DNA of 64,000 nt from a bacterium (GTDB lineage Bacteria; Patescibacteriota; Minisyncoccia; Phycocordibacterales; JAGLPS01). Each line of letters starts with the position of its first letter. Within the stretch, counting starts at the first letter, position 1. A program made the position numbers and the translations under genes. The stretch covers positions 23,535-87,534 of the forward strand of contig JAUYHB010000020.1 of the NCBI GenBank assembly GCA_030690305.1, given 5' to 3'. The notes beneath the pieces were generated by a model, which made no database searches, was not told where the DNA came from, and saw only the letters and a list, made by a program, of their open reading frames with translations. This document shows, piece by piece, positions 5,542 to 62,986 of this stretch.

Positions 5542-5626
5542 CTTTGTTTCGACTTCGACTCGAACGCTATGAACATGAAGACATGCTCACACGCTTCTCG
5601 CTCGTCGAAATAAAAATAGAAAAATA
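5542..5626 (+). repeat. Intergenic repeat family, copy 2 (long form: ggtattaaacactttgtttcgacttcgactcg ... cgcttctcgctcgtcgaaataaaaa)
   Basis: 5' and 3' modules are conserved with the other copies; terminal 7 bp inverted repeat tttcgac/gtcgaaa. Confidence 0.6.
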
Positions 5627-19119: not shown

Positions 19120-19238
19120 GGAGCGATATGTACAAAAATTATACCATAGCCGCGCCGCAGATTGACTTATTGCGCTAATTGTGTATGATATAGGCATTAT
19201 CAAGTTCGCCTCACGGCGGACTCATTTTTTTATAACGT

Positions 19239-39799: not shown

Positions 39800-41350
39800 A
39801 TGTTTGGAAAAGTATATAGCGCCCAGCTTTCCTTTCTTTCCGCTCATATTGTGCACATTGAAGTAGACCTCTCCCGAGGTCTATATTCTTTTTCAATCGT
39901 GGGACTTCCCGATAAGGCGGTTGAGGAGGCGCGCGACAGAATATCGGCGGCAATAAAAAATTCCGGATTTAAATCACCTAAAAACAAAAATCAGAAAGTG
40001 GTTATATCTCTTGCACCCGCCGAACTCAAAAAAGAAGGTTCGTTGTTTGACTTGCCGATGGCTCTTGCTTATCTTCTTGCATCGGAAGATGTTTCTTTCT
40101 CTCCCGAAAAACGTTTGTTTCTGGGTGAATTGTCGCTTGACGGGACGTTACGGAAAATTCAAGGTGCATTACCTCTTGTTGAAAAAGCAAAACGTGAAGG
40201 GTTTACCGAAGTTTTTCTTCCAAAAGATAACGCGAGAGAAGCGGCTTTTGTTCGAAACATAAAAATTTTCGGAGTACGAAATTTGAAAGAGGTTGCCGAA
40301 CATCTCGAAGAAAAAAAAGAAAAACAAAAAAAATTTCTTATCGAGCCGCAAAAAGAAACCGCGATTGTCTTTGAAAATGCACCGCAGAAAATAACTTTCG
40401 GGGATATAAAAGGGCAAGAAGGGGCAAAACGGGGGCTAGAGATTGCAGCCGCGGGAGGGCACAATATTGCGATGTACGGGCCGCCCGGAACAGGAAAGAC
40501 CATGCTTGCAAAAGCATTTTGCGGTATCTTACCACCTCTTTCCCGTGAAGATATTTTTGAGGTAACAAGCATTCATTCGGCTACCGGAATCCTAAAGGAC
40601 GACCTTCTCATACATCCTCCTTTCCGTGCACCACACCACACTTCTTCGTACGTATCCCTCATTGGCGGCGGGACAATTCCGAAACCGGGTGAAGTGACGT
40701 TGGCACATAATGGTGTACTGTTTCTCGACGAATTTCCCGAGTTTGAAAGCAGGGTTATTGATTCTCTGCGAGAACCGCTCGAGGAAAGGGTCGCCCGGGT
40801 GTCACGGGCACGGGGCTCGGTTCAGTTTCCTGCAAAATTTATCCTTATTGCCGCCATGAATCCTTGTCCATGCGGATATTTCGGAGTAAAAGGAAAATCG
40901 TGCGTGTGCAGACCGGCAGATATATTGCGATATAAAAGAAAAATCTCCGGACCGATTATAGACAGAATCGATTTGTGGGTTGAGGTCGCAAACATCGGAC
41001 ATGAGAAACTTATGGAAAAAGGGGAGGGGGTTGATTATGGAGAAACAGCGCGCAAACGGGTATTACATGCGCGAGAAATCCAAGAGAAAAGATTCAAGAG
41101 CCTAAATTTACAATTGAAAACCAACAGCGAGCTTGGGCCACGAAGTATCGTTAATCATATTTCTTTGGACACATCGGTAAAAAAGGTGCTCGATGATGCC
41201 GCCCGTCGGTTTGATTTATCTCCGCGAATGTATCATAGAATCATAAAGGTTGCCCGTACCATCGCCGATCTCGAGCCTTCGGAAAACATAAAAGAGGAAC
41301 ACCTGTTTGAGGCTCTGCAGTACAGACCGAAACAAGAAGAACGAGGGTAA
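39800..41350 (+). CDS. comM: YifB/ComM-family Mg-chelatase-like AAA+ ATPase
   Basis: N-terminal Lon-like domain, Walker A GPPGTGKT, and C-terminal Mg-chelatase-like region. Confidence 0.8.
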   Translation: MFGKVYSAQLSFLSAHIVHIEVDLSRGLYSFSIVGLPDKAVEEARDRISAAIKNSGFKSPKNKNQKVVISLAPAELKKEGSLFDLPMALAYLLASEDVSFSPEKRLFLGELSLDGTLRKIQGALPLVEKAKREGFTEVFLPKDNAREAAFVRNIKIFGVRNLKEVAEHLEEKKEKQKKFLIEPQKETAIVFENAPQKITFGDIKGQEGAKRGLEIAAAGGHNIAMYGPPGTGKTMLAKAFCGILPPLSREDIFEVTSIHSATGILKDDLLIHPPFRAPHHTSSYVSLIGGGTIPKPGEVTLAHNGVLFLDEFPEFESRVIDSLREPLEERVARVSRARGSVQFPAKFILIAAMNPCPCGYFGVKGKSCVCRPADILRYKRKISGPIIDRIDLWVEVANIGHEKLMEKGEGVDYGETARKRVLHAREIQEKRFKSLNLQLKTNSELGPRSIVNHISLDTSVKKVLDDAARRFDLSPRMYHRIIKVARTIADLEPSENIKEEHLFEALQYRPKQEERG

Positions 41351-47367: not shown

Positions 47368-48171
47368 ATGAATTCCGGACAACCTTTGGGTCAGCATTTT
47401 CTCCGCTCCGCCAAAGCATTGGCGGATATTGTTTCAGCCGCATCCCTTACTCCATCGGATACCGTCCTTGAGATCGGACCGGGGGAGGGGGTACTCACAA
47501 AAGAGTTACTCGCCCATGCGGGGAAGGTAATCGCCATAGAAAAAGACCCTGTGCTCGTCGAGTTTCTCAAAAGTCGGTTTGGAAATGAAATCGGAACCGA
47601 TAAACTTCTGGTGATTGAAAAAGATATAAGAGATTTCTTTCCTGAAAAGTACGGTCTCAAAAAAGGAAAGTACAAACTTGTCGCAAATATTCCTTACTAT
47701 ATTACGGGAGAAATCCTAAGAAAATTTGTTGGGGGGGAAACCCCGCCATCGCACGCGGTTCTTTTGGTTCAAAAGGAGGTCGCCGAACGTATCGTCGAAA
47801 AAGACGGTAAAGGGAGCCTTCTTTCTATATCGGTAAGAGCGTTTGGGGAACCGAAAAAAATGGCAGTGGTGAAAAACACCGCTTTCAGCCCCCAACCAAA
47901 GGTCGATTCGGCAATTCTTTCAATAGAAAACATTTCGGATAAATTTTTTGACGATATCTCGCAAGAAACGTTTTTTGAAACGGTAAAGATAGGATTTTCA
48001 CAAAAAAGAAAACAATTGAAAAATAATTTGAATAAAAAATTCGGGGAAAGCGCCGTTTCGGGTACGTTTAACACATGTTCAATCCCCGAAAAAGTTCGGG
48101 CTGAGAAACTAAGTTTGTCGCAGTGGAAGTGTCTCGCGCGTGAATTAAATAAAGCCTCTTCACACAATTAA
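47368..48171 (+). CDS. rsmA: 16S rRNA (adenine1518/1519-N6)-dimethyltransferase
   Basis: GQHFL, EIGPGEGVLT and NIPY motifs of KsgA/RsmA. Confidence 0.85.
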   Translation: MNSGQPLGQHFLRSAKALADIVSAASLTPSDTVLEIGPGEGVLTKELLAHAGKVIAIEKDPVLVEFLKSRFGNEIGTDKLLVIEKDIRDFFPEKYGLKKGKYKLVANIPYYITGEILRKFVGGETPPSHAVLLVQKEVAERIVEKDGKGSLLSISVRAFGEPKKMAVVKNTAFSPQPKVDSAILSIENISDKFFDDISQETFFETVKIGFSQKRKQLKNNLNKKFGESAVSGTFNTCSIPEKVRAEKLSLSQWKCLARELNKASSHN

Positions 48172-49213: not shown

Positions 49214-50101
49214 ATGCACCCGTATAATAAAAAAAGTTTCTTGGGACAAAAGGTTGTGGCAGCACTACTTGTATTTGTTTTTTTCTTTTCCAACCTTGCT
49301 TTTATGCCACAAAAAGTTCAGGCCGCTGTACCTACATTTGACGTAGGACTTAACCCTGCATTTGCAGCATATACTGCAGCATTTACAACATATGCCGGAA
49401 TAGAAACTGCAAACACAACATCTCTCACAGTAAAAGAAACCATCCTTGACGCCATTGCTTGGGCTGCCGCAAAAGTTATTATCCAGAACATGCTTCAAAG
49501 TATTGTTACCTGGGCCCAAAACGGCTTTAATGGTGGACCGTCTTTTATCCAAGACCCTGAAGGGTTTCTACGGGACGTTGGGGACCAGACAGCAGGACTT
49601 GTGATTAGCGACATCGCGCCTTTTCTCTGTGAACCTTTCCGTATCTCTCTTCAAACAAACCTTTCTTTGAGTTATTCTCTGCCTGTTTTTGATAAAATTG
49701 AATGTACACTTTCCGATGTCATCGACAACATTGACGGTTTCTTGAATGGAGATTTCACACAAGGAGGCTGGGATGGGTGGTTTTCAATGACACAAAACAA
49801 AAGAAACAACCCTTACGGAGCGTTTCTCTTGGCACAGTCGGAACTGAATGTGCAGGTGGCAAAAAAACAGGGAACAGAACTTAAGTTTCTTGATTGGGGA
49901 CAAGGCTTCTTTTCGTTCCGTGATGCTGACGGACTTGTTCAGACCCCGGGAAAAATTATTGAGAACCAGCTAAATCATTCCCTAGGCTCTGGAACACGCT
50001 CACTTGAAATTGCTGACGAAATTGATGAGGTAATCGGCGCTGTTGTCGCGGGCCTCGTCACACAGATGTTTAGCGGTGGTAGTGGTTTTCTTGGACTTTA
50101 A
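49214..50101 (+). CDS. Secreted hypothetical protein (first gene of the T4SS-like cluster)
   Basis: Signal peptide ending VQA; no recognised domain. Confidence 0.4.
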   Translation: MHPYNKKSFLGQKVVAALLVFVFFFSNLAFMPQKVQAAVPTFDVGLNPAFAAYTAAFTTYAGIETANTTSLTVKETILDAIAWAAAKVIIQNMLQSIVTWAQNGFNGGPSFIQDPEGFLRDVGDQTAGLVISDIAPFLCEPFRISLQTNLSLSYSLPVFDKIECTLSDVIDNIDGFLNGDFTQGGWDGWFSMTQNKRNNPYGAFLLAQSELNVQVAKKQGTELKFLDWGQGFFSFRDADGLVQTPGKIIENQLNHSLGSGTRSLEIADEIDEVIGAVVAGLVTQMFSGGSGFLGL

Positions 50102-50104
50102 ATT

Positions 50105-52081
50105 TTGATAATAATGTTTAAAAGAGAGAATAAAAAAATCTTCCTGAAACTCCTGTCATCCTTCTTACTGTTGCTTCTTGTCCTTGTTCCTTTCTTTGTA
50201 AATGCACAACAAGCCTCGACTCAGGAAAGCGGGGAAAAGTGTGGCTGGACTAACATGGCCGGATGTATAGAGATGGCGTGGGGCAAACTTGTAGGCTCCA
50301 TAGCGGATCTTATTCTCAGTCTTGCGGCATTTGTTACGTTTGCGGCAGGAACATTATTGGACTTCGTCATTAAATACACAATTGTTGATATGTCTGCGAA
50401 TGTAGGTGTAATTACCGGGATCAGCACTGCTTGGGCGGCGTTACGAGACCTTGCGAACATTTTCTTCATATTCATTCTCCTTTACGCGGCTATTGCTACC
50501 GTCCTTCAGATGGGAGGAGTAAATACAAAAAAAATAATCACCCGGGTGATTATTATTGCCCTTCTCATAAACTTCAGTCTTTTCTTCACGCGGGTGATGA
50601 TTGATGTGTCCAACGCCCTTTCGGTTGGCTTTTATAATGCCATTTTAAGTGGTGTTTCCGGAAGTGACGGCATTTCATATGCATATATGCAGAAACTTCT
50701 GCTCACAACCGTTTATCAACCCGGTAGTGGTGCTGGTGCTGACCTTACAAAGTTTCCGGAGGTAGGGTTTTTGGGTGCAATATTTTTCCTTGTAGCCGCC
50801 TTTGTTTTTCTTGCCGCAGCCGTAATGTTCATCACCCGTTTTGTTGTGCTTGTTTTCCTCATGATCACTTCTGCCCCTGCTTTTGCAGCTATGGCCCTCC
50901 CTAATGACAAATATTCCGGAGATTGGTGGAAAGCTTTGTGGGACCAACTAATTTTTGCCCCTGTTTTCTTTATTCTTTCATGGGCAACTCTTCAGGTGCT
51001 TGATGGTGCACTGGGCACCTTGGGCGCAGGAGCAAGCTTAAAAGACGCCATTGCAGGGAGTATGGATGCGAACGGAAACAAAACTGCGATTCCGGGTGCA
51101 GCCGCTGTGTTTGCCAACTTCGGAATCGCAATAACATTCATGATTGTTACTCTTACCATTTCTAAGAAACTTGCCGGAAGTGCCGGAAAAGGAATTCAGA
51201 GTTTTGTAGGTGGGGTTGTTGGTGGAGCAACTATTGGCGGAGCCGCGTGGCTTGGCAGGCGAACATTGGGTTGGGCTGGTGACAGATTAAGCCAAAACAC
51301 TTCCTTACAAGGAGCTGCAGGTCAAAATAATCTTGCGGGGAAAGCTGCTCGATTAACTCTTCAGGGTACCAAAAACTTATCGAGGGCAAGTTTTGATGCG
51401 CGCAATATAAAAACACTCGGTATTGGTGAAACTATTTCTAGAGAAGGTAGTTTGGGTAAAGGAAAAGGCCAGGGTGGTTATGTTACAAGTAAGGACAGCC
51501 AAAGAGAAAGGGTACTTAAGGATGACCAGCTAAGGGTTGCTGGAGCGAGAACAGCAATTGTTTCGACTGGTTTGGCGCCTACAGCCACAGGTGCGGATAT
51601 TCTTGCTATGCAACAACAAGTGAGCAAAATGAGTACAAACGATATTGAAAATACAAGCTTAGCAAATTTGCAAAGAAGTGAGTTTGCCACAGGATTATCA
51701 CACAGTCAAATGGAAGACATTAAGAAAAGCACTAAGTTTACACAAACAGAAAGTAATTTGATTGAAAATAGACGCGATGCAGGACTTGTCAATCTTTGGA
51801 ATGCATCTGGATCAGCAGGACTGTTCGCGGTTACAAAGCGTGCTAAACCAAATGAGATGGCAGAACTTCCGCAACCAATCCTTGTTGATCCTAACTTCGC
51901 ACAACATTTAAGTGTCCCTGCGTTACAGCGCATAACTAATGAAGGGACTCTTGGTTTCGTCGATAAAGCATTGGTAAGAGCTAATATTATTGCTGCAGCC
52001 GCACTTCCGACTAACATAGGGAATGTCCAGCTTCAGAAAACGGCATCGTGGCTTGCGAGCCCGCAGGGCAGCATCTTCTAA
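50105..52081 (+). CDS. VirB6/TrbL-like polytopic membrane protein (type IV secretion component candidate)
   Basis: Signal peptide plus 6 or more TM helices and a long hydrophilic C-terminal tail, as in VirB6/TrbL. Sits in the cluster with VirB4 and PrgI homologs. Confidence 0.5.
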   Translation: MIIMFKRENKKIFLKLLSSFLLLLLVLVPFFVNAQQASTQESGEKCGWTNMAGCIEMAWGKLVGSIADLILSLAAFVTFAAGTLLDFVIKYTIVDMSANVGVITGISTAWAALRDLANIFFIFILLYAAIATVLQMGGVNTKKIITRVIIIALLINFSLFFTRVMIDVSNALSVGFYNAILSGVSGSDGISYAYMQKLLLTTVYQPGSGAGADLTKFPEVGFLGAIFFLVAAFVFLAAAVMFITRFVVLVFLMITSAPAFAAMALPNDKYSGDWWKALWDQLIFAPVFFILSWATLQVLDGALGTLGAGASLKDAIAGSMDANGNKTAIPGAAAVFANFGIAITFMIVTLTISKKLAGSAGKGIQSFVGGVVGGATIGGAAWLGRRTLGWAGDRLSQNTSLQGAAGQNNLAGKAARLTLQGTKNLSRASFDARNIKTLGIGETISREGSLGKGKGQGGYVTSKDSQRERVLKDDQLRVAGARTAIVSTGLAPTATGADILAMQQQVSKMSTNDIENTSLANLQRSEFATGLSHSQMEDIKKSTKFTQTESNLIENRRDAGLVNLWNASGSAGLFAVTKRAKPNEMAELPQPILVDPNFAQHLSVPALQRITNEGTLGFVDKALVRANIIAAAALPTNIGNVQLQKTASWLASPQGSIF

Positions 52082-52082
52082 A

Positions 52083-52748
52083 ATGATGAACAATCAACTC
52101 AGAGAGAAAATAAAAAATGCACTTCAAAAATTCCCTAAGGAATTGAAATATGAAGTGACCTCCGAGGAGGCTTTTGATGCCTTCCTCGAGATAGTTAAAA
52201 AACATGGAATAGAAAAAGAGAAGACTGACAGATTTTCTGATGCTGTTTATTCGGTTGCATACGGTGTTGAGCCTTTAGAAACACTTACCGCACAAATTGA
52301 AAAGGCGTTGGACGGAAATATTCAAAAAGTACAACCAATAGCGGAGGACGTGAGAAAAATGATAATTACTGAGAATCTAAAAAATTATCTGGCGGCTCAA
52401 AAAACAGGCATGGCGTCTGGTATAGAAAAAATAGGTGGGCAGTACGTGTTCCCAGAAACAGGAAACATGATAAAAACTACCTCGGTGTCTGAGCAGACAA
52501 GCAACAGGTCTGTAATGGCAAACGGGGAAGTGATAAATAAGACGCAGGTTCTTCATGACATTGAAAATCCTCAAAAGGTTACTCCCGCATTTGAACATCT
52601 TCCTTCCGGAGTGGCTGGGGGGAACATCATCGACGACAAGCTCAACAAAATCGTTAAACTGCCACGGCAAGAAAAATATGATGAAAATGGAGGCCCTAAA
52701 CCAGAAGGACAGATTCAGTCGGACCCTTATCGGGAACCGATTGAGTAG
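52083..52748 (+). CDS. Hypothetical protein (T4SS-like cluster)
   Basis: ORF directly following the VirB6-like gene. Start taken at MMNNQ immediately after the upstream stop. Confidence 0.35.
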   Translation: MMNNQLREKIKNALQKFPKELKYEVTSEEAFDAFLEIVKKHGIEKEKTDRFSDAVYSVAYGVEPLETLTAQIEKALDGNIQKVQPIAEDVRKMIITENLKNYLAAQKTGMASGIEKIGGQYVFPETGNMIKTTSVSEQTSNRSVMANGEVINKTQVLHDIENPQKVTPAFEHLPSGVAGGNIIDDKLNKIVKLPRQEKYDENGGPKPEGQIQSDPYREPIE

Positions 52749-52763
52749 CGGGATTTTTTAACA

Positions 52764-53198
52764 ATGCAGTTTCAAACCCCACAATTCATTGACGTTGAGG
52801 ACAAGATTTTCGGTCCTCTGACGTTTAAACAGTTCGTATATCTTGCCGGAGGGGCAGGGCTTGTTGTCGTTTTGTGGACGTTGTTACCTCCCTTTTTTGC
52901 CGTTCTTTTAGGATTGCCGGTTATCGCTCTTTCACTGGCGCTTGCATTTTATACCGTAAACAACAAGCCTTTTGTAAATATCATGGAATCGTTTTTTTCG
53001 TATGTTTCCGGTAGTAAATTATATGTGTGGAAAAAAGAAGCGAAAAAGGCAATGCCTTCGGAACCAAAAGAAGGTGGAACCGACCTGGGACTTTACGTCC
53101 CCCGCCTTTCGGACAGTAAGTTAAAAGACCTTACCTGGAGTCTTGGTGTCAAAGACCAGACGCAACCGAAAGAAAAGAGTTCTGTTATTGGGCAATAG
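52764..53198 (+). CDS. PrgI-family (VirB3-like) T4SS membrane protein
   Basis: IDVEDKIFGPLTFKQFVYLAGGAGLVVVLW followed by a second TM matches the PrgI/TcpE-like family found beside VirB4 in Gram-positive-type T4SS. Confidence 0.55.
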   Translation: MQFQTPQFIDVEDKIFGPLTFKQFVYLAGGAGLVVVLWTLLPPFFAVLLGLPVIALSLALAFYTVNNKPFVNIMESFFSYVSGSKLYVWKKEAKKAMPSEPKEGGTDLGLYVPRLSDSKLKDLTWSLGVKDQTQPKEKSSVIGQ

Positions 53199-53326
53199 GT
53201 GAATAGACGGTATTACCATAGAAGTTTAATATCCCCGCAGATTATTGCGATTTGGGACAAACCTTCGAGCATAAAATGAGTCTGTCTGGCTTGCTCTGAG
53301 GTTTAATACCTCTTATTATTATACCA

Positions 53327-53971
53327 ATGGCTATCCAGGCACAGGCAACTCAAGACTTTGTTCCAATTAGTGAAATCAAAGACGGCATCGTCATTCTAAA
53401 GGACGGGTCATTGCGCTCAATAGTGATGGTTTCATCTCTTAATTTCGCGCTCAAAAGCGAGGAGGAAAAAAATGCCATCATTTCACAGTTTCAGAATTTT
53501 CTCAATTCACTGGATTTTTCCATGCAAATATTCATACAGTCCCGACGACTCGATATTCGGCCATATCTCGCGCTTATCGAACAGCGCTACAAGGAACAGG
53601 TAAATGAGCTCATGCGGATTCAGATTCAAGAATATATCGAGTTTATAAAAAACTTTACCGAAACAACGAATATTATGACGAAAAATTTCTTTATCGTTGT
53701 GCCGTATACCCCGGCTTTTCTTCAAACAAACAAATCAACGAGAGATTTGCTTAATTTCGGAAAAACAAAGTCTCAAAAAGAAACCCAAAAAACCAATGAG
53801 GCCGTCTTTGAGGAAAACCGCACCCAGCTTGAACAACGCGTTGCCGTCGTTGAACAAGGCCTTGTGCGCTGCGGCATCCGAAGCGTGCTCTTAGGCACGG
53901 AAGAGGTGATTGAGTTGTATTACAAAATTTTCAATCCCGGCGAAACCGAGAAAGCAATACAAACATCGTAA
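53327..53971 (+). CDS. VirB4/TraE-family ATPase, N-terminal domain fragment (separate ORF)
   Basis: TQDFVPISEIKDGIVILKDGSLRSIVMV ... NAIISQFQNFLNSLDFSMQIFIQSRRLDIRPYL matches the conserved N-terminus of Gram-positive VirB4 homologs (PrgJ/TcpF-like). It ends at TAA 53969-53971, 1 nt before the next ORF's ATG. Confidence 0.55.
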   Translation: MAIQAQATQDFVPISEIKDGIVILKDGSLRSIVMVSSLNFALKSEEEKNAIISQFQNFLNSLDFSMQIFIQSRRLDIRPYLALIEQRYKEQVNELMRIQIQEYIEFIKNFTETTNIMTKNFFIVVPYTPAFLQTNKSTRDLLNFGKTKSQKETQKTNEAVFEENRTQLEQRVAVVEQGLVRCGIRSVLLGTEEVIELYYKIFNPGETEKAIQTS

Positions 53972-53972
53972 T

Positions 53973-55784
53973 ATGGGGTTACTTGATTTTTTACAACCGA
54001 AAAAGAAAGAGGAGGAGGTCTCTATGATACTGCCGCAAGACGTATATGACGCGGGGGCTCTTGAATTAAAAGACATTATCGCTCCAAGCGCCTTGAAAGT
54101 CGGCACGAAAGACCTTAATCTTGGAGGAAAATCCGTCCGAAGTTTTTTTGTTATTTCTTATCCGCGATTTCTCGCGGAAAGTTGGTTTTCTCCGATCATT
54201 AACCTCGACAGGGTATTTGATGTCTCGATTTTCATTCATCCCATTGAAACCGCAACCATTCTAAGGCAGTTTCAAAAGAAAGTAGCGGAGGTTCAGAGCC
54301 AAATTCATGAACGCGAAGAAAAAGGCCTTGTCCGCGACCCGAAGCTTGATACCGCATATCGCGACTTGGAAGAATTGCGTGACCGACTGCAGCAAGCACA
54401 GGAGAAACTTTTCGATGTCGGATTATATATTTCAATATATGGAGAAAACGATGAAGACCTCAACAAAGCGGAAGGCCAGGTGAAGTCCATTCTTGAGTCA
54501 AAACTTGTATATGTAAAACCGGCGCTTTTCCAGCAAGAACAGGGGTACAAAAGCGTGTTGCCCGTAGGAACCGACCTTTTGGGAGTTCATTCGAAGTTTA
54601 ATTCCGCTCCTTTATCGAGTCTTTTTCCTTTTATCTCATTTGACCTGACTTCGGACAAAGGAATTTTGTATGGGATAAACAGGCATAACTCGAGTCTTGT
54701 GTTGTTTGACCGATTCAGCCTTGAAAATTACAACTCAATCACGTTCGCGAAATCAGGCGCGGGAAAGTCATATGCCACCAAACTTGAGATTCTTCGGTCA
54801 CTGATGTTCGATACTTCAATCATTGTCATCGACCCCGAGCGTGAATATGAATATCTCGCACAGGCCACCGGAGGAAGATACTTTAAAATATCTCTCACTT
54901 CGGAACACCACATTAACCCTTTTGATCTCCCCGTCCCTCAGGAAGGGGAATCGGGAGCAAATGTACTGCGCTCAAACATCATAAACCTTGTCGGACTGTT
55001 TAGAATTATGCTTGGAGGACTTACCTCAGAAGAAGACGCGGTTATTGACCGGGCAATTTCCGAAACATATGCACTTAAGGATATAAGCCCGAATTCGGAT
55101 TTTTCCGCCGTGACACCGCCTCTTTTGTCAGATTTTGAGCTTGTGTTGTCGGGTATGGAAGGGGGAGAGTCCCTGGCGCAACGATTAAGTAAGTACACAA
55201 AAGGAACGTGGTCAGGTTTCATCAACCAGCCGACCAACATTGACATAAACAAGAAATTTATCGTTTTCTCGGTTCGCGACATGGAAGATGAGCTGAAACC
55301 CATTGCCATTTACATCATCACCCACTACATATGGAATGCCATCAGAAAAGAAATCAAAAAACGCCTCCTCGTTATTGATGAGGCGTGGTGGATGATGAAA
55401 TCGGATGACACCGCGTCGTTTTTGCTTGGCCTTACCAAGCGCGGAAGAAAATATTATCTTGGCGTCGCGACCATTACCCAAGACGTTGACGACTTCCTTG
55501 GGTCTCAATACGGAATGCCCATCGTAACAAACTCTTCAATTCAGCTTCTTCTCAAACAAGCCCCGCCGGCCGCCGAGAAGTTGCAGAAAATTTTTAATCT
55601 TACAGACGAGGAAAAGTATCTGCTTCTTGAGTCTGACGTTGGGGAAGGGATATTCTTTGCAGGACTTAAGCACGTCGCCATAAAAATCATCGCCTCGTAT
55701 ACCGAAGACCAGATTATTACTTCCGACCCCTCACAAATACTTGCCATTGAAAAGTCGAAAAAGGATCTGGAGGTAAATTCTTAG
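53973..55784 (+). CDS. virB4: VirB4/TraE-family type IV secretion ATPase (ATPase portion)
   Basis: Walker A FAKSGAGKS and Walker B LLVIDEAWWM; conserved VirB4 middle and C-terminal regions. It starts in a different reading frame from the upstream fragment. Confidence 0.75.
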   Translation: MGLLDFLQPKKKEEEVSMILPQDVYDAGALELKDIIAPSALKVGTKDLNLGGKSVRSFFVISYPRFLAESWFSPIINLDRVFDVSIFIHPIETATILRQFQKKVAEVQSQIHEREEKGLVRDPKLDTAYRDLEELRDRLQQAQEKLFDVGLYISIYGENDEDLNKAEGQVKSILESKLVYVKPALFQQEQGYKSVLPVGTDLLGVHSKFNSAPLSSLFPFISFDLTSDKGILYGINRHNSSLVLFDRFSLENYNSITFAKSGAGKSYATKLEILRSLMFDTSIIVIDPEREYEYLAQATGGRYFKISLTSEHHINPFDLPVPQEGESGANVLRSNIINLVGLFRIMLGGLTSEEDAVIDRAISETYALKDISPNSDFSAVTPPLLSDFELVLSGMEGGESLAQRLSKYTKGTWSGFINQPTNIDINKKFIVFSVRDMEDELKPIAIYIITHYIWNAIRKEIKKRLLVIDEAWWMMKSDDTASFLLGLTKRGRKYYLGVATITQDVDDFLGSQYGMPIVTNSSIQLLLKQAPPAAEKLQKIFNLTDEEKYLLLESDVGEGIFFAGLKHVAIKIIASYTEDQIITSDPSQILAIEKSKKDLEVNS

Positions 55785-55787
55785 ATT

Positions 55788-56102
55788 ATGTTTAATGAAA
55801 CAAAACGGGTGGGGATGGCACATTTTTTAGTTGCCGGTATCGCTGACGGGTTGCAATTTGTAGTTAATTTCCTTCATTTGTTCCCCGTTATTGGAACTAT
55901 TCTTGCCTCAATGGTGTCTTTTGCCATCACCTTGGGAACATTTTTGACATTTGGTATTTTTTTCGGAACGTGGTTTCCTGTCACCTTTTTTGGGGAAACA
56001 ATTCCCGTCATCAACGGCCTTCCTTTCTGGACTGCCCGCGTCATGTTTGAAGCCGCAAAAGAGCGCGCACCTGCGGCAGCACCGGTGCCAAATAAAAAAT
56101 AA
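55788..56102 (+). CDS. Small membrane protein (hypothetical; T4SS-like cluster)
   Basis: Three hydrophobic helices; no homology recognised. Confidence 0.35.
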   Translation: MFNETKRVGMAHFLVAGIADGLQFVVNFLHLFPVIGTILASMVSFAITLGTFLTFGIFFGTWFPVTFFGETIPVINGLPFWTARVMFEAAKERAPAAAPVPNKK

Positions 56103-56138
56103 GTGTGGAAAAGTTGACAAAACATTGTGATACAATAA

Positions 56139-57275
56139 ATGCATATGCGTAGTATTTCTCTGATTAAAGTGTCTTTTGTGGTGTTTGTGTGTGCAATGTC
56201 TGCTTTTTCGTTTGCTCAAACTTCCGATCCGTATCAGCTGAGCCCGGAGGAATTGGCCCTTACACAAACAGGAAGCACGACGTCTTTTACTTCTACAACA
56301 AACAGTCAGTACCTGGGTGAACAGTTACAGAAACTCCAAGACGCGATTCAAAGCCAGTATGGGTCAATGATAAGTATCAGAAGCAAACCGGATGCGCCAA
56401 AACCTTTTGAGAAAATTATTGTGGAAATTGAAGGGTATAGCGTTAATCTCAACAGTTCCTATATCACTTGGTCCGTGAACGGAGTGGCACGGAAGGCGGG
56501 ACCGGGAGCAAAGAGCGTTGAACTTGTTTTGGGAGGGCTAGGAAGTGTTACCGTTGTTTCCGCAACAATTGAAGCCGATGGAGGAATAAATATTGAGAAA
56601 GAAATAACATTACGGCCGGTGGACGTTGACCTTGTTTGGGAGGCGCAGTCATACACACCTCCTTTCTATAAAGGCAAGGCTTTAAACGCGCCTCAGGGAA
56701 GTGTGGTTATAACCGCCATTCCATACGTTGTTGAGGGAGGAGTAAGGATAAATTCAGCAAATCTTATTTACAAATGGAGTAAGGACAATACGGTGCAAGG
56801 AAGTTTGTCGGGGTCTGGAAGAAATACGTTTGTTTTCAATGGCTCAATCATTTCAAGGCCCGTTACAATTTCCGTTGAAGTAACTTCACCCAAAAGCAAT
56901 ATAAAAGCGGTTAAAAAAATAACCATTAAGCCGTCTCAGGCAAAAGTGCTTCTTTACGAGATCAACCCACTATATGGTGTAGGATACGCGAGCGCGATCG
57001 GAAAAGAGTATGAGATGAGAGGAAAGGAACTGACGCTTATCGCTACTCCGTACTTTTTCAGCAGCCAAGACAAGGCGGGTGATAATTTAAGTCATGTCTG
57101 GTCTCTTAATAACAAGAAAATTGATGGCGAGGCGAACAAAAACGTCATTACATTCCGAAGGCCTGAAACCGTCGGAGTTTCGCAAATTGCCCTTGGTGTA
57201 GAGAGTGGGAATAAAATTCTTCAGTCCGCAAGAAACACCGTTCTGCTTAAATTTAGCGAGGAAAAAAGCGAGTAA
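56139..57275 (+). CDS. Secreted hypothetical protein with internal beta-rich repeats
   Basis: Signal peptide (AFSFAQTSD); repetitive Ig-like segments. Confidence 0.4.
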   Translation: MHMRSISLIKVSFVVFVCAMSAFSFAQTSDPYQLSPEELALTQTGSTTSFTSTTNSQYLGEQLQKLQDAIQSQYGSMISIRSKPDAPKPFEKIIVEIEGYSVNLNSSYITWSVNGVARKAGPGAKSVELVLGGLGSVTVVSATIEADGGINIEKEITLRPVDVDLVWEAQSYTPPFYKGKALNAPQGSVVITAIPYVVEGGVRINSANLIYKWSKDNTVQGSLSGSGRNTFVFNGSIISRPVTISVEVTSPKSNIKAVKKITIKPSQAKVLLYEINPLYGVGYASAIGKEYEMRGKELTLIATPYFFSSQDKAGDNLSHVWSLNNKKIDGEANKNVITFRRPETVGVSQIALGVESGNKILQSARNTVLLKFSEEKSE

Positions 57276-57284
57276 GATAAGAAA

Positions 57285-57713
57285 ATGGAAAAAATCTTTA
57301 ATTTAATAAAGAAAATATGGACAGTGGGACTTGTGTTTCCTTTGTTTGTTTTCGCACAAAGTGAGTACACTCTCTTAGAGCCCCTCACAAATCCTTCCGG
57401 CGGAACAATCAATTCGACTTCGGATCTTGGGAACTATCTTCAGTTTGCTTTTCAATTTACTATCGGCATCACAGGAGTGCTCGCGGTTATTATGATTATC
57501 CTTGGAGGAATCCGCTATCTCTCTACCGACGCAATCAGCGGCAAAGAAGAGGGCAGGAGCATGATTACAGGGGCTATAGGTGGACTTTTACTCGCAATTC
57601 TTTCTTGGCTTATCCTTAATACAATCAATCCGGACCTGTTGAAGTTTAATGTGATACCTTCGTCAAATTCTTCCGGTGGGGGAGGGGGCGGAGGGGGAGG
57701 AGGAGGTTTTTAA
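57285..57713 (+). CDS. VirB2/TrbC-like pilin candidate with poly-Gly C-terminus
   Basis: Signal peptide ending FAQSE, two hydrophobic helices and a C-terminal GGGGGGGGGGGF. The architecture resembles conjugative pilins. Confidence 0.4.
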   Translation: MEKIFNLIKKIWTVGLVFPLFVFAQSEYTLLEPLTNPSGGTINSTSDLGNYLQFAFQFTIGITGVLAVIMIILGGIRYLSTDAISGKEEGRSMITGAIGGLLLAILSWLILNTINPDLLKFNVIPSSNSSGGGGGGGGGGGF

Positions 57714-57725
57714 TTTAACACAATC

Positions 57726-58961
57726 ATGCTTAAAAAATTTCTCATACCCGTCATTATTTTTGTTATTATCGCAGGAGCACTGGGAGCATATTTTTTCTTT
57801 TTACAAAACAAAAATCCCAATAATACTTTTTTTGGAGACCTTTTTCCTTTCGGACAAGGCCCTGATTTGGGAAATGGCTCAACTGTGACAGAGAGTGGTG
57901 GGGAAAATGGTAACGGTAATGAAGAAGCGAATATTTTACCTGCCCCTCAGATACGCAAAATAACGGGGGAACAGGTGGCAGGGGTAACCCTTATTGACGC
58001 GGCTAGCACAACGGTTATCCGTTACATTGAAAGGGGTACGGGACATATATACGAAGCAGACGCCCTTACACTTGCTTTGAAAAAGATATCAAATACAACT
58101 ATCCCGAAAATTTATGAAGCTTTGTGGACCGGGAAAGGAGATTCGGTCATTCTTCGATATTTGAAAGACGACAACGAAACGATTGAGACATTTTATGCAA
58201 AGCTTTCAAAAAATTCTATCTCCGGAGCGGATGGAAATTCGGTCTCGGACCTTGAGGGAAGTTTTCTTCAAACCGACATAAGAGAAATTGCAGTTTCTCC
58301 GGATAAAAACAGTATTTTTTCCTTGGTTGCTTCAGTGACGAGTGGAAGCGGAGTCATTTCACGGCCCGATGGAACACAGAAACAAACTTTTCCTCTTCCC
58401 CTTAAAGAATGGGTTGTCTCATGGCCGACACAGGACACAGTTCTTCTTACAACAAAACCGAGCGCGGAGGTTGGAGGTTATGTATACACGTTTAACACCT
58501 CGACCGGAGAGCTGGGAAAAATCACAGGGGAAGTGGGTGGCATAACGGCAAGCGCAGACCAGTCTCTGAACTATCTGCTTTACTCCGAGAGCAAACAAAA
58601 AAGCTTCTTCCTGAATTTACTCAATATTGCTGACAAAACAATTACCAGGTCTCCGTCCCAAACCCTACCCGAAAAGTGTGTGTGGAGCAAGAAAGAGAAA
58701 TCTGTTATTTACTGTGCGGTCCCTAAAACAATACCAAGCAATGACTATCCGGACGCGTGGTACCAGGGGATTGTATCTTTTTCGGATAAAATATTGAAAA
58801 TAGATTTTGAGAATAACACAACTTCCGTAATCGCCGACACGAAAGAGGCGGTAGGGGAAGAGGTTGACGCAGTTTCACTTTCTCTCAATGCAGAAGAAAA
58901 CTATCTTGTCTTTCTGAATAAAAAAGATTCCTCTTTGTGGGGAATTCAAATTACTCCTTAG
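57726..58961 (+). CDS. Signal-anchored hypothetical extracellular protein
   Basis: N-terminal TM (IPVIIFVIIAGALGAYFFF) with a long beta-rich ectodomain. Confidence 0.4.
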   Translation: MLKKFLIPVIIFVIIAGALGAYFFFLQNKNPNNTFFGDLFPFGQGPDLGNGSTVTESGGENGNGNEEANILPAPQIRKITGEQVAGVTLIDAASTTVIRYIERGTGHIYEADALTLALKKISNTTIPKIYEALWTGKGDSVILRYLKDDNETIETFYAKLSKNSISGADGNSVSDLEGSFLQTDIREIAVSPDKNSIFSLVASVTSGSGVISRPDGTQKQTFPLPLKEWVVSWPTQDTVLLTTKPSAEVGGYVYTFNTSTGELGKITGEVGGITASADQSLNYLLYSESKQKSFFLNLLNIADKTITRSPSQTLPEKCVWSKKEKSVIYCAVPKTIPSNDYPDAWYQGIVSFSDKILKIDFENNTTSVIADTKEAVGEEVDAVSLSLNAEENYLVFLNKKDSSLWGIQITP

Positions 58962-59655
58962 GTTTTCTTTTAAGGAGCATCTCCTGGCCGATGGTAAAAA
59001 GATTACTCGTGGCCCAGTAAAGGCTCACGGCGGAAGAAATTTGATAAGCAAAAAAGCCCATCATCACGGGTAGTATATATTTCATTTGAACACGCATACT
59101 TTTTGCGAGTTCGTTTTCCTGCACGCCGGGAGCAGGGGCAGGAAGTGATATGCGCATTTGGAAAAAAGAAGAAACGCCAACAATGACAGCGAGAATAAGA
59201 CTGTTTTTTGTTACATCAAAGATACCGAGAAAAATCATATTTAAATTTTGAGGTATGCCCACAAAAGAATAGAGGATTCCTGTGTCAACGGAAGGGAGTC
59301 CGCTTTGCGCGAAAATAAAGTAGAGAGCAAAGATAATAGGAAACTGTATGAAAGCAAGAAGAATGCTCATGAAGGGGTTGACCCCGTTTTCTTTATATAA
59401 AGCAATAATTTGTTCCGCTTGGGCCTGCTGGTCTTTTATTTTTCCTTTTATTTCTGAAATTTTCGGTTCAAGAATTTTCAGTTTCTGCTGCGCATGAAGA
59501 GATTTTCGTGAAAGAGGGAAGAGAACCATTTTGATAATAATCGTAAAGAGAACAACAATAATTCCCACATCAAACCATGGAAGGAAATCAATAAGCAGGA
59601 TGAGCCCGTTATACAACGGCTGGTAAAAAAAGGTGTGAAAAAAGGAAGAAATCAT
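58951..59655 (-). CDS. yidC: Membrane protein insertase YidC/Oxa1 (short form)
   Basis: 234 aa 5-TM protein with the YidC core, in the conserved rpmH-rnpA-yidC arrangement. Confidence 0.8.
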   Translation of the reverse strand: MISSFFHTFFYQPLYNGLILLIDFLPWFDVGIIVVLFTIIIKMVLFPLSRKSLHAQQKLKILEPKISEIKGKIKDQQAQAEQIIALYKENGVNPFMSILLAFIQFPIIFALYFIFAQSGLPSVDTGILYSFVGIPQNLNMIFLGIFDVTKNSLILAVIVGVSSFFQMRISLPAPAPGVQENELAKSMRVQMKYILPVMMGFFAYQISSAVSLYWATSNLFTIGQEMLLKRKPKE

Positions 59656-59692
59656 TTTCGCATTGTAACGTATTTCAAAGGGCCGTTCAATG

Positions 59693-60034
59693 TCATTTTG
59701 GCGGGATCATTATTTTTGCTTTTACAAAAAGGTCAACGATTTTCTTTTGTATTTCCATTTGCGGAATCAAGGAAACGTCGGAGAGAACAAAAACAACCAC
59801 TTCTTTCTGAGACAGAGAGCCCATGACCGACCCAATTATCTCGTATACCAGGCGTCGGATGCTGTTTCTTTTTACTTTGGAACCGGCTATTTTTGAAGAA
59901 ATAACGACAGCATAGCCTTTTTTGTCGCTTTTTGAACTAACGCACAAGGAAAAAGGATGGGAAGAAACTTTTTTCCCTTCTCTTAGAAGATGACGGACCT
60001 CAGAGGAGGTTAGTCTTTGTCTCTTCGGAAGCAT
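59693..60034 (-). CDS. rnpA: Ribonuclease P protein component
   Basis: 113 aa basic protein MLPKRQRLTSSEVRHLLREGKK... typical of RnpA, downstream of rpmH. Confidence 0.8.
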   Translation of the reverse strand: MLPKRQRLTSSEVRHLLREGKKVSSHPFSLCVSSKSDKKGYAVVISSKIAGSKVKRNSIRRLVYEIIGSVMGSLSQKEVVVFVLSDVSLIPQMEIQKKIVDLFVKAKIMIPPK

Positions 60035-60042
60035 AAAAACAG

Positions 60043-60177
60043 CTACAAACCCAGGCGCGCCCTCCCTTTTCGTCTTCGACGCTGCACTACCTTTTTGCCG
60101 GCGTGTTTCCTCTGTCTCGAGAGGAAACCATGCGTTGTTTTTCTTTTTCTTTTCTTAGGTTGGTATGTTCGTGACAT
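60043..60177 (-). CDS. rpmH: 50S ribosomal protein L34
   Basis: Manual translation of the minus strand gives [44 protein letters not shown] (44 aa), a near-consensus L34. It is not in the supplied ORF track because of its size. Confidence 0.85.
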
Positions 60178-60333
60178 AAGTATTGTATTCTACAATGTTT
60201 GTATTACTTATTCAAGGTGTATTTCATGTTCCTTGTACACCCCTTATACACAACTTATTAACATAAATGAGAGAAAAAAGGAAGTTCTATAATTCAAAGA
60301 CGAGGATATAATTAACCCTACCTAAAAAGTACG

Positions 60334-61680
60334 ATGATGGATACAAAAAAACTTTGGGATAGCGTACTTACTGAAATAGAGTTGAATGTCTCACGGGCAA
60401 CTTTTACGACATGGTTTAAAGACACGTACGTTTCCAAGGAAGAAGACGGGGTTGTTTTTGTAAGTGTGCCAAACGCATTTGTAAAAGAGTGGCTTCTCAA
60501 CAAATACCACAACATTATCTTGAAGTCGCTGCGAAGCGCTCTTGAGACGATTCGTTCCGTGGAGTATACAATCTCAAGAAGCGAGGAAAAGCCGCAGGAA
60601 GAACAAAAAATAGAGCCTCAGAGGACTTTTTCCGAACTTCCACTACATGATTTATATATAAACAAGGAGGACAACTTAAACCCACGCTATACCTTCGAAT
60701 CTTTTGTTATCGGACCTTTTAACGAGCTTGCCTATGCTGCGTCCCAAGCGGTAATAAAAAAGCCCGGTATTACATATAATCCTCTTTTTATTTACGGAAA
60801 CACCGGACATGGAAAAACGCACCTGATTCAAGCGATTGGCAACCATATAAAAAGCACGCAGACGGAAAAAAGAATTCATTATGTTACCTCGGAAAAATTC
60901 GCTCTTGATTATATAAATTCAGTACAAAACAATAAAACAAATAATTTCAAACAAAAATACAGAAAGTATGATGTTTTGATTATGGACGATATCCATTTCC
61001 TATCAAATAAAGAGAAAACCCAAGAGGAATTGTTTCATCTTTTTAATTATCTTTACGACAACAACAAACAAATTATCTTCTCTTCTGACAAACATCCGAA
61101 TTATATTCCCAACCTTGAAGAAAGGCTTAAATCAAGGTTTGCGGCGGGAATGATTATAGATATACCGATTCCGGATCAAGAGTCACGCGCGGCGATTTTA
61201 AGGGCAAAATCACGCATGAACAACTTTATCTTAAATGAAGAAGTTATTGATTTTCTTGCCCAATCAATACCGAGTAATATCCGTGAATTGGAAGGAGTGC
61301 TCAACTCGTTGATTTTTCAAACACAATTAAAAGGAAAGGACTTACTCCTTCATGAAATAAAAAACCTTATTAAAGACAGCGCCAAACCAAAGAGAAGCCT
61401 TGCGCCAAAAGACGTGATAAAGATAATTGCCGATTTTTATAATATTGAAGAAGAGAATATATATAGAAAAACAAGAAAGAAGGAAATCATTAAACCGAGA
61501 CAGGTTACCATGTATCTTCTTCGTGAGGATTTTAATATTTCTTATCCTTCAATAGGGGAGAAGTTGGGGGGGAGGGACCACGCCACAATTATTCATTCAT
61601 GCGAGAAGATAAAAAATGAGTTGAAAACAAACCAACTACTTAATCAGGAGTTAAATCAGATACGAGCGATGATTTCATAG
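60334..61680 (+). CDS. dnaA: Chromosomal replication initiator protein DnaA
   Basis: AAA+ Walker A GNTGHGKTHL, Walker B LIMDDIHF, and a C-terminal DNA-binding domain. Confidence 0.9.
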   Translation: MMDTKKLWDSVLTEIELNVSRATFTTWFKDTYVSKEEDGVVFVSVPNAFVKEWLLNKYHNIILKSLRSALETIRSVEYTISRSEEKPQEEQKIEPQRTFSELPLHDLYINKEDNLNPRYTFESFVIGPFNELAYAASQAVIKKPGITYNPLFIYGNTGHGKTHLIQAIGNHIKSTQTEKRIHYVTSEKFALDYINSVQNNKTNNFKQKYRKYDVLIMDDIHFLSNKEKTQEELFHLFNYLYDNNKQIIFSSDKHPNYIPNLEERLKSRFAAGMIIDIPIPDQESRAAILRAKSRMNNFILNEEVIDFLAQSIPSNIRELEGVLNSLIFQTQLKGKDLLLHEIKNLIKDSAKPKRSLAPKDVIKIIADFYNIEEENIYRKTRKKEIIKPRQVTMYLLREDFNISYPSIGEKLGGRDHATIIHSCEKIKNELKTNQLLNQELNQIRAMIS

Positions 61681-61888
61681 TGTTAATAGCGAGTTGATAT
61701 ATTGAAGAAAGGGTGTTGGTAAGTTTATGAAAATAGTGTTAAAAAGATGAAAAGGGATTGTTATATACAGGTAGTTTTCTTAAATAAACATACTATTACC
61801 GAAAATTTCTCTAAAATAACCAGGTTTTAAGACAAAAAATAAACTTACCAACATATCCACTCCCTATATAAAAATAACTTCTTTATAT

Positions 61889-62986
61889 ATGAAAATAGAA
61901 TGTATTAAAGATAATATTCAAAGAGCTCTTTCTAAAGCTGAGCGAATTTCCGGTAAGAACCTTAATTTACAGATACTTAATAATATTTGTATTGAAGTAA
62001 AAAATAAGGAGGTTAAAATACGTTCAACAAACCTTGATTTAGGTATTGAAATCATCATACCTGCAAAAATACACTCGGAGGGTATTGTTGTTGTTCCAGG
62101 GAAAACACTAAGTCTTTTTCTTGAAAATATTAAAAATGATACAGTGGTTTCTTTGGAAAAAGATGAGAACGTTCTGAAGATTGTCACAAAACACAATTCC
62201 GCCACATTGAAAACATATTCTGAAAATGAATTTCCTACAATTCCATTAGTTGATGGGGTGCTCGCACAAGTTTCCGTAAAAGATTTTATTAACGGACTTC
62301 GTTCTGTTTGGTTTAGTGCGTCTTCTTTAAATATAAAACCCGAGCTCTCGAGTGTTTTTTTATGCCCGGAAAAAGGAAATTTATTTTTTGTTTCTACGGA
62401 CTCGTTCCGTCTCGCTGAAAAAAAGATTAAATTAAAAACATCCGACACTATTCCTCAAATACTTATTCCTATTAAAAATATTTCGGAAATTATACGAGTT
62501 TTCGAAGAATCGGATGGAGAAATAAAAGTACGTATAGATAAAAACCAAATTTCTTTCTCAAAAGACGGAGTATATCTCACATCCCGATTGGTTGACGGAA
62601 CGTTTCCGGATTATAAACAAATCATTCCTAAAGAGTCTCTCACTGAAATAATTCTTCTCAAAGAAGACCTGATAAACGCAATGAAGATATCTCAGATATT
62701 TTCCGACCACTTCAATCAAGTCAGCTTTCTTATAGACCCGAAAAAGAAAAGTTTTGAGTTGAAAACAAAAAATTCGGAAGTGGGAGAAAGTGTTCAGTCT
62801 ATTGACGCGGTTGTGAGGGGTGAACCGATCTCTCTTAATTTTAATTATAAATATATCTTTGACGCGTTTCAGTCGATTGCAAGTGACAGTTTGTCATTAA
62901 AGATGAGCGGGGCCGGGAAGCCAATGGTAATACAGGGAGTATCAGACCAGACATTTACATACATTGTTATGCCTATGAATAAATAG
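61889..62986 (+). CDS. dnaN: DNA polymerase III beta sliding clamp
   Basis: 365 aa three-domain clamp, directly downstream of dnaA. Confidence 0.85.
   Translation: MKIECIKDNIQRALSKAERISGKNLNLQILNNICIEVKNKEVKIRSTNLDLGIEIIIPAKIHSEGIVVVPGKTLSLFLENIKNDTVVSLEKDENVLKIVTKHNSATLKTYSENEFPTIPLVDGVLAQVSVKDFINGLRSVWFSASSLNIKPELSSVFLCPEKGNLFFVSTDSFRLAEKKIKLKTSDTIPQILIPIKNISEIIRVFEESDGEIKVRIDKNQISFSKDGVYLTSRLVDGTFPDYKQIIPKESLTEIILLKEDLINAMKISQIFSDHFNQVSFLIDPKKKSFELKTKNSEVGESVQSIDAVVRGEPISLNFNYKYIFDAFQSIASDSLSLKMSGAGKPMVIQGVSDQTFTYIVMPMNK

Follow-up and report, generated by a model that had tools for sequence, protein, structure and literature searches.

A conserved trsD–virB4 gene pair that probably carries one VirB4 in two polypeptides in a chromosomal type IV secretion-like locus of Patescibacteria

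The gene pair and its junction

The window, a stretch of 64,000 nucleotides (nt) from a Patescibacteriota genome (assembly GCA_030690305.1, contig JAUYHB010000020.1, positions 23,535 to 87,534), contains two adjacent open reading frames (ORFs) related to VirB4, the ATPase of type IV secretion systems (T4SSs). ORF1 opens with an ATG at 53327, closes with a TAA at 53969-53971 and encodes 214 amino acids (aa). ORF2, which also opens with an ATG, encodes 603 aa and lies in the +1 frame relative to ORF1. A lone T at 53972 separates the two, giving the junction TAA-T-ATG (Table 1). An earlier note on this DNA, the original prediction, had described these coordinates, the junction and the difference in frame, all of which proved exact when the sequence was inspected again. 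The frame of ORF2 is already open from 53910, so that it overlaps the end of ORF1 by about 60 nt. Hydrophobic segments are absent from both products, and the Walker A and Walker B motifs of ORF2 are intact.

The junction is not an accident of a single contig. An identical ORF1 product (P0001) is found in two sources, NCBI and Logan, on two contigs, and the TAA-T-ATG junction recurs in L084, a relative with 93% identity. Together these make an error in local assembly very unlikely.

Table 1. Features of the trsD–virB4 locus, its surroundings in the window and the genes inserted at related loci
Feature	Position	Strand	Basis or remark
Gene junction (trsD stop, 1-nt spacer, virB4 start)	53969..53975	+	sequence
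trsD-like gene (ORF1), soluble stand-alone protein of 214 aa, about the first 180 residues of full-length VirB4	53327..53971	+	NCBIfam, AlphaFold2 fold, homologues
Short virB4 (ORF2), 603 aa, VirB4-family ATPase without the first N-terminal subdomain	53973..55784	+	NCBIfam
Second half of VirB4 N-terminal domain, ORF2 residues 1-227	53973..54653	+	PF11130 and TrwK alignments
VirB4 C-terminal ATPase domain, ORF2 residues 228-584	54654..55724	+	phmmer against 4AG5; Pfam P-loop_TraG, E 6.7e-24
Walker A, SGAGKS, ORF2 residues 261-266	54753-54770	+	sequence
Walker B, LLVIDEAW, ORF2 residues 465-472	55365-55388	+	sequence
T4SS-like gene cluster, co-oriented and tightly packed	49214..58961	all +	ORF list
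PrgI-family (VirB3-like) small membrane protein, directly upstream of trsD	52764..53198	+	Pfam PF12666, E 6.5e-10, 39.9 bits against a cutoff of 27
658-aa polytopic membrane protein, candidate VirB6-like channel subunit	50105..52081	+	eight hydrophobic segments and position
VirB2-like T4SS pilin	57285..57713	+	Pfam PF18895 (T4SS_pilin), 26.6 bits, equal to the cutoff
Uncharacterised cluster ORFs	49214-50101, 52023-52748, 55788-56102, 56139-57275, 57726-58961	+	ORF list
ksgA	47368-48171		flanks the cluster
yidC, rnpA, dnaA, dnaN	58951-62986		flank the other side of the cluster
ComEC (Competence, DUF4131)	5587-7080	-
PilB-like type II secretion/type IV pilus ATPase (T2SSE and MshEN)	17362-19203	-
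ComM-like Mg-chelatase-family protein	39800-41350	+
Inserted four-helix-bundle gene at related loci	L005:4351-4752; L006:4684-5067; L075:4684-5043; L076:4690-5049

The two products cover complementary parts of VirB4

Comparison with three profile models places the products of the two ORFs side by side on VirB4. ORF2 matches the NCBIfam model of the CD1110-family VirB4 (NF045971, 752 positions) at 360.5 bits (E 1.8e-107), above the curated whole-protein cutoff of 325 bits, over model positions 183-733, and ORF1 covers positions 2-118 of the same model. Similarly, in the NCBIfam model VirB4_plasma (Mbov_0397; 894 positions) ORF1 spans 102-284 and ORF2 spans 278-893. In the Pfam model TraC_F_IV (PF11130, 375 positions), which describes the N-terminal domain, ORF1 takes up positions 15-174 and ORF2 positions 295-373, the latter falling on ORF2 residues 119-198. 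A complete N-terminal domain is thus not found in one polypeptide, since ORF2 starts at model position 183 (CD1110) or 278 (VirB4_plasma), and the segment missing from its N-terminus is encoded by ORF1. By this model coverage ORF1 and ORF2 are adjoining, non-overlapping pieces of one VirB4, and the arrangement is not that of a VirB4 accompanied by a duplicate of its own N-terminus.

The C-terminal part of ORF2 (residues 228-584) aligns to the C-terminal domain of Thermoanaerobacter VirB4 (PDB 4AG5; phmmer E 1.2e-40), and residues 289-735 of TrwK, the VirB4 of the R388 T4SS, align to ORF2 residues 113-550. The original prediction had described ORF2 as the Walker A/B ATPase portion; an ATPase it is, but not only that, as its first ~227 residues are N-terminal-domain sequence. 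The N-terminal domain of TrwK comprises residues 15-400 (PMC9259494). Because ORF2 retains the second half of this domain, the break lies inside it, roughly halfway along, at about TrwK residue 175 by extrapolated alignment, and not, as had been proposed, exactly at a domain boundary, here that between the N-terminal and ATPase domains.

A phmmer search of the PDB sequences with ORF1 returned no match even at E <= 10, so that within the PDB its relation to VirB4 is visible only by a search with the fold. For this an AlphaFold2 model of ORF1 was built from 62 homologues and compared with the PDB using Foldseek. The top 14 matches are all TrwK/VirB4 chains of the R388 T4SS, the best having an E-value of 4.8e-4, a probability of 1.00 and a query TM-score (TMq) of about 0.47, and the next match outside TrwK has a probability of 0.35. 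The model predicts a VirB4 N-terminal fold for the ORF1 product, which is called TrsD below. The earlier identification of ORF1 as the N-terminal part of VirB4 agrees with both the NCBIfam matches and the TrwK fold.

Conservation and variability of the junction

The junction was analysed at every one of 80 related loci, taken one per GTDB species and 62-74% identical. An ORF1 stop is followed by a VirB4 gene in all 80, and trsD and virB4 are syntenic throughout. The aligned ATG of VirB4 could be scored in 78 loci (the unscored loci being L048 and L051), and in most of the 80 the ATG that opens the ORF2 homologue aligns with residue 1 of ORF2 in the window. Frame and spacer, by contrast, vary freely. 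The second gene lies in frame 0 relative to the first in 13 loci, in frame +1 in 32 and in frame +2 in 35. Spacer length in the 78 scored loci has a median of 7 nt and extremes of a 4-nt ATGA overlap (L074) and ~470 nt; 11 of these loci have the 1-nt spacer seen in the window. The spacer sequences are A/T-rich and unconserved.

Four of the loci (L005, L006, L075 and L076) contain a whole gene of 119-133 aa between trsD and virB4, which belongs to the 23S_rRNA_IVP/four-helix-bundle family (PF05635, TIGR02436). L048, with a gap of ~460 nt, probably carries one as well. These small, mobile-looking genes show weak similarity to Avd of diversity-generating retroelements, and their insertion at this position looks recurrent or inherited.

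L051 provides a contrast. In this metagenome-assembled genome (MAG; MFD01223) the VirB4 homologue (L051:4662-6455) is divided into four segments in three different frames, with breaks at arbitrary positions, probably through an assembly indel error, or else as a genuine pseudogene. No comparable pattern of a true frameshift lesion is found in the window.

Both genes are also under strong purifying selection. Compared with L084 the nucleotide identity is 80%, and the non-synonymous divergence (dN) is 0.040 for ORF1 and 0.031 for ORF2. As synonymous sites are saturated even against this closest relative, dN was considered together with nucleotide versus protein identity in place of a dN/dS ratio. 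It is the low dN alongside 80% nucleotide identity and saturated synonymous sites that argues for the selection.

Translation start of ORF2

The original prediction had noted a weak ribosome-binding site before 53973. A Shine-Dalgarno motif is indeed absent there, but this has no diagnostic value, because the genome seldom uses such motifs: a Shine-Dalgarno-like sequence (GGAG, GAGG or AGGA) precedes only 8 of 51 candidate genes of the window, and dnaA, dnaN and yidC are among those that do without it. Translation initiation in the source genome appears to be largely independent of Shine-Dalgarno sequences.

The N-terminus of ORF2 from 53973 is conserved among relatives as MG[IL][FL]D..., and the conservation of this sequence and of the ATG itself indicates that 53973 is the true start. 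An alternative in-frame ATG at 54024, which follows AGGAGGAGG at 54010-54018, was rejected, as most of the relatives start at the ATG of residue 1 and the genome seldom uses Shine-Dalgarno motifs. The Shine-Dalgarno-like sequence AGGAGGAGG encodes a Glu-rich stretch that lacks conservation, as L006 and L076 show.

Family membership and distribution of TrsD

ORF1 matches the NCBIfam model for TrsD/TraD (NF041427) over positions 13-143 of 201 with 31 bits (E 2.1e-7). A true member of that family, the TrsD of Mesobacillus, scores 271.7 bits. ORF1 does fit TrsD in the broad sense of CONJScan MPF_FATA TrsD, as used by Quiñonero-Coronel et al. (2025; PMC12102498), in that it is a protein of ~200 aa homologous to the VirB4 N-terminus and encoded beside virB4; here the criteria were compared rather than a profile score. 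The TraC-like family PF26593 is among the precomputed database matches of ORF1 and of all its homologues and is absent from the local Pfam scan at E <= 10, where the model is presumably missing.

More than 8000 homologues of ORF1 are present in databases. Identity is 65-100% among the best 120, every one of which is 210-230 aa long and annotated as Patescibacteria, Parcubacteria or Paceibacterota. More distant relatives were collected by searching with a profile through 1.84 billion representatives at 50% identity, of which 3135 matched, and the top 150 were classified. All but one of these 150 are stand-alone proteins. Most (93) are 190-260 aa long and 14 are fragments of under 190 aa. A further 42 (~28%), of 261-450 aa, have the same domain followed by a low-complexity C-terminal tail of 60-230 residues rich in Pro, Ala, Gln and Thr (for example P0177, P0200 and P0214, within P0142-P0270). 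The TrsD of the window has no such tail.

The remaining representative, P0201 (L087:544-2937 of CAZTUR010000004.1), is the sole fusion among the 150. It is 797 aa long, its two halves are joined in frame by a 9-codon linker (RGEVIGRQG), and its context, prgI...yidC-rnpA-dnaA, is that of the window. It is either a natural re-fusion by loss of the stop or a MAG assembly artefact, a single contig being available.

Genomic context

The gene pair lies within a T4SS-like cluster bordered by ksgA at one end and, at the other, by yidC, rnpA, dnaA and dnaN, which places the cluster next to the chromosomal replication origin. The PrgI-family protein has two hydrophobic segments within residues 19-56. 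The 658-aa membrane protein, which has no Pfam or NCBIfam match, is a candidate VirB6-like subunit by position and topology. The VirB2-like pilin ends in an unbroken run of 12 glycines at its C-terminus, SSNSSGGGGGGGGGGGGF. Among the uncharacterised ORFs, that of 241 aa at 52023-52748 overlaps the end of the gene for the 658-aa protein by 59 nt and has no family match; an in-frame ATG further downstream is probably where it really starts.

VirB4, TrsD, PrgI/VirB3 and a VirB2-like pilin near dnaA, the features by which Quiñonero-Coronel et al. (2025) characterise the chromosomal T4SS of Patescibacteria, are all present here. A relaxase or a VirD4/TraG coupling protein was not matched among the scanned ORFs, which comprised those of the cluster and its neighbourhood and the ten largest others of the window, with the small ORFs elsewhere lying outside the scan. 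Elsewhere the window holds ordinary chromosomal genes, including those for PNPase, H+-PPase, RecJ, RNase Y, a PilB-like ATPase, ComEC and ComM. The ComEC, PilB-like and ComM-like proteins belong to the machinery for DNA uptake and type IV pili that is typical of Patescibacteria.

Interpretation of the gene pair

The explanation favoured here is that ORF1 and ORF2 are two separate, co-transcribed genes, trsD and a short virB4, of a chromosomal Patescibacteria (Paceibacteria-type) T4SS, and that together they carry one VirB4. We assign this a probability of about 0.88. It stands on the gene boundaries and their conservation, on the purifying selection that acts on both genes, on the way the two products complement each other along VirB4 and on a TrsD fold that resembles VirB4. 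The original prediction had likewise favoured a genuine two-polypeptide VirB4, and had looked to an alignment of orthologues. That alignment finds the split conserved at all 80 related loci and TrsD free in 149 of the top 150 representatives, with the aligned ATG, the varying frame and the varying spacer in support. The opposite outcome, continuous orthologues with this genome alone disrupted, is not what is seen. The split itself had therefore been correctly recognised, and what had escaped notice was that the first gene belongs with TrsD/TraD and that the arrangement is a published one.

Several points weigh against this explanation. The AlphaFold2 model of ORF1 is of only moderate confidence (pLDDT 72), and the Foldseek E-values are modest, from 5e-4 to 1e-2. 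With 31 bits against a curated cutoff of 200 bits for NF041427, ORF1 is a distant relative of the TrsD/TraD family and not a member at threshold. The contacts of TrsD with VirB4 and with PrgI, and the role of TrsD in the machine, are predictions. Finally, the 1-nt UAA-U-AUG junction probably acts as a site of termination and reinitiation, that is, of translational coupling, on the evidence of its spacing alone, and such coupling cannot be obligatory, because several relatives have long spacers or an inserted gene between trsD and virB4.

The main surviving rival, which we consider improbable, makes TrsD an accessory factor with a role of its own: it would be a paralogue that has diverged from the VirB4 N-terminus and serves for example in regulation, substrate recruitment or assembly chaperoning, and would not be a structural complement of the short VirB4. 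The low-complexity tails found on 42 of the top 150 representatives suit a free protein that evolves independently. Against this, the two products occupy adjoining, non-overlapping segments of VirB4, such that the short VirB4 misses exactly the part that TrsD provides, and the order of the genes is that of the domains. In addition, the pair is kept together at all 80 loci, and P0201 is an instance of a natural in-frame fusion of the two.

Programmed recoding at the junction, either a +1 frameshift or a bypass of the stop codon, would yield a fused VirB4 besides or instead of the two products. The overlap of the open ORF2 frame with the end of ORF1 would allow it, and the fused protein P0201 suggests that a covalent link is tolerated. 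Recoding requires a conserved frame relation and a slippery or stimulatory sequence, but across the 80 loci the frame relation, the length of the spacer and its sequence are all unconserved; moreover, the N-terminus of ORF2 is conserved from its own ATG, as for true initiation. The free variation of frame and spacer rules out recoding as well as a shared frameshift lesion, and the recoding site offered as one option in the original prediction is accordingly given almost no weight. A frameshift pseudogene or a sequencing or assembly indel, also among the options first raised, can be dismissed with equal assurance: the ORFs do lie 1 nt apart in different frames, and indel-broken copies do occur in other MAGs (L051), but a once-continuous VirB4 broken by a 1-nt change is effectively refuted by the stop at the same protein position in 80 of 80 loci, by frames and spacers that differ between lineages and in places admit a whole gene, by the strong purifying selection on both ORFs and by the identical ORF1 on two contigs.

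A mechanism for the two-gene VirB4

If trsD and the short virB4 do form one VirB4, ribosomes that end at the UAA of trsD may reinitiate one base further on at the AUG of virB4, which would give roughly equimolar products. TrsD would then form a non-covalent contact with the N-terminal region of the short VirB4, so that a complete VirB4 N-terminal domain is rebuilt. It may also bind the PrgI/VirB3 membrane anchor, whose gene lies just upstream. The resulting complex would, by homology to R388, be a membrane-docked hexameric T4SS motor, with the ATPase hexamer docked to the channel. This docking model draws on three points: TrsD supplies the segment that the short VirB4 lacks, VirB3 of R388 wraps around the VirB4 N-terminal domain, which mediates VirB4 dimerisation (PMC9259494), and a PrgI-TrsD fusion exists in Embleya (see below). 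It leads to the hypothesis that TrsD is the VirB3-binding piece of VirB4, and together the complementarity and the actinomycetotal fusion make the function of TrsD open to test.

A wider and more doubtful proposal is that the first N-terminal subdomain of VirB4 is an ancient, separable adaptor module whose partner depends on the lineage: free in Patescibacteria and on some Bacillota plasmids, joined to PrgI/VirB3 in Actinomycetota and to VirB4 elsewhere. Were this so, a free TrsD could let the ATPase dock onto a PrgI/VirB6 platform in a regulated or sub-stoichiometric way, and the Pro/Ala/Gln-rich tails could contribute interactions specific to a lineage. An ancestral free state would mean that the canonical VirB4 arose by gene fusion.

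For annotation, where a Patescibacteria genome shows a 'VirB4' in two frames, the genes should be recorded as trsD and virB4 and not as a pseudogene or frameshift. The pair also amounts to a natural experiment, in which the VirB4 N-terminal domain has been cut at ~residue 175 (TrwK numbering) and is still under strong selection in thousands of genomes.

Comparison with known systems

The trsD-virB4 arrangement is already known, and is real and functional. According to a survey of Patescibacteria T4SSs (Quiñonero-Coronel et al., 2025, Microb Genom), TrsD next to VirB4 is the commonest component set. TrsD is there the T4SS component found most often in these bacteria (2,272 homologues, 1,664 of them associated with virB4) and is confined outside them to the pGO1 subclass of MPF_FATA. 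The same survey places the Paceibacteria cluster near dnaA, dnaN, rnpA, ksgA and rpmH, and reports that TrsD is essential in Southlakia epibionticum. In the sole species tested the system with the split VirB4 is needed for epibiotic growth. The published pair, including that of Southlakia (Wang et al., 2023; PMC10633639), shares with the window the order prgI-trsD-virB4, the chromosomal position beside yidC/rnpA/dnaA/dnaN and ksgA, the VirB2-like pilin and, among the ORFs scanned, the lack of a relaxase or coupling protein in or near the cluster. No substantive difference separates it from the window, which is an instance of the published arrangement.

In the same survey TrsD is termed 'remotely homologous to the N-terminal portion of VirB4', and its available text neither assigns TrsD a function nor states that one VirB4 is divided between TrsD and the short VirB4 as two exactly complementary halves. 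The main text of Guglielmini et al. (2014; PMC4027160) contains no explicit statement on TrsD, and papers on the plasmids pELF and pNP40 name the proteins differently and are uninformative on TrsD. What is added here is small: the exact complementarity, the variability of the junction, one rare re-fusion, the four-helix-bundle insertions and a PrgI-TrsD fusion, which hints at what TrsD may do. The outcome is a modest refinement of published work and not a discovery.

A similar pair, TrsD/TraD and TrsE/TraE, is encoded by the staphylococcal and enterococcal plasmids pGO1, pSK41 and pIP501 (MPF_FATA, pGO1 subclass), in which a soluble protein of ~200 aa lies directly 5' of a VirB4-like ATPase of ~650 aa. 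These systems are plasmid-borne and conjugative and have a relaxase and a coupling protein, whereas that of the window is chromosomal, lies by oriC and apparently has neither. Plasmids of Bacillota show this split as well. That of Mesobacillus has trsD (212 aa) followed by the gene of a 657-aa DUF87 ATPase. In Pontibacillus a 274-aa TrsD-like protein (hhalign probability 99.5%, E 8e-23) overlaps a 621-aa CD1110-family VirB4, and in Jeotgalibacillus a 306-aa protein corresponding to CD1110 positions 2-176 precedes a VirB4-like protein. The plasmid NZ_CP104004.1 of the haloarchaeon Salinirubellus salinus encodes a 525-aa protein (L083:3986-5563) with a TrsD-like N-terminal region (tblastn E 3e-5, query 4-203) and DUF7139, directly upstream of a 773-aa ATP-binding protein. 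This adjacency suggests that the split architecture may extend to archaeal conjugation-like systems.

The single-chain VirB4 proteins, namely TrwK of R388 (PDB 7O41, 7O43 and 8RTB) and the monoderm CD1110 and Mbov_0397 families, have the same content and domain order as ORF1 and ORF2 joined, but in one polypeptide where the window has two. A different link is seen in Embleya sp. (Actinomycetota), whose plasmid NZ_CP108778.1 encodes a 349-aa protein (L086:865-1914) in which an N-terminal PrgI domain (Pfam, 64.6 bits) is followed by a TrsD-like one at residues 136-245 (hhalign probability 96%, E 4.5e-9); two genes downstream lies a separate gene for a 643-aa VirB4-like ATPase. By the Rosetta-stone argument this fusion links the VirB3 anchor to the TrsD module. 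VirB3-VirB4 fusions are likewise known in some MPF_T systems (PMC4027160 and PMC12102498). The modules that are covalently joined in these fusions are three separate proteins in the window. Taken together, these arrangements show the VirB3 anchor, the first VirB4 N-terminal subdomain and the remainder of VirB4 to be a single functional unit, the covalent links of which vary between lineages.

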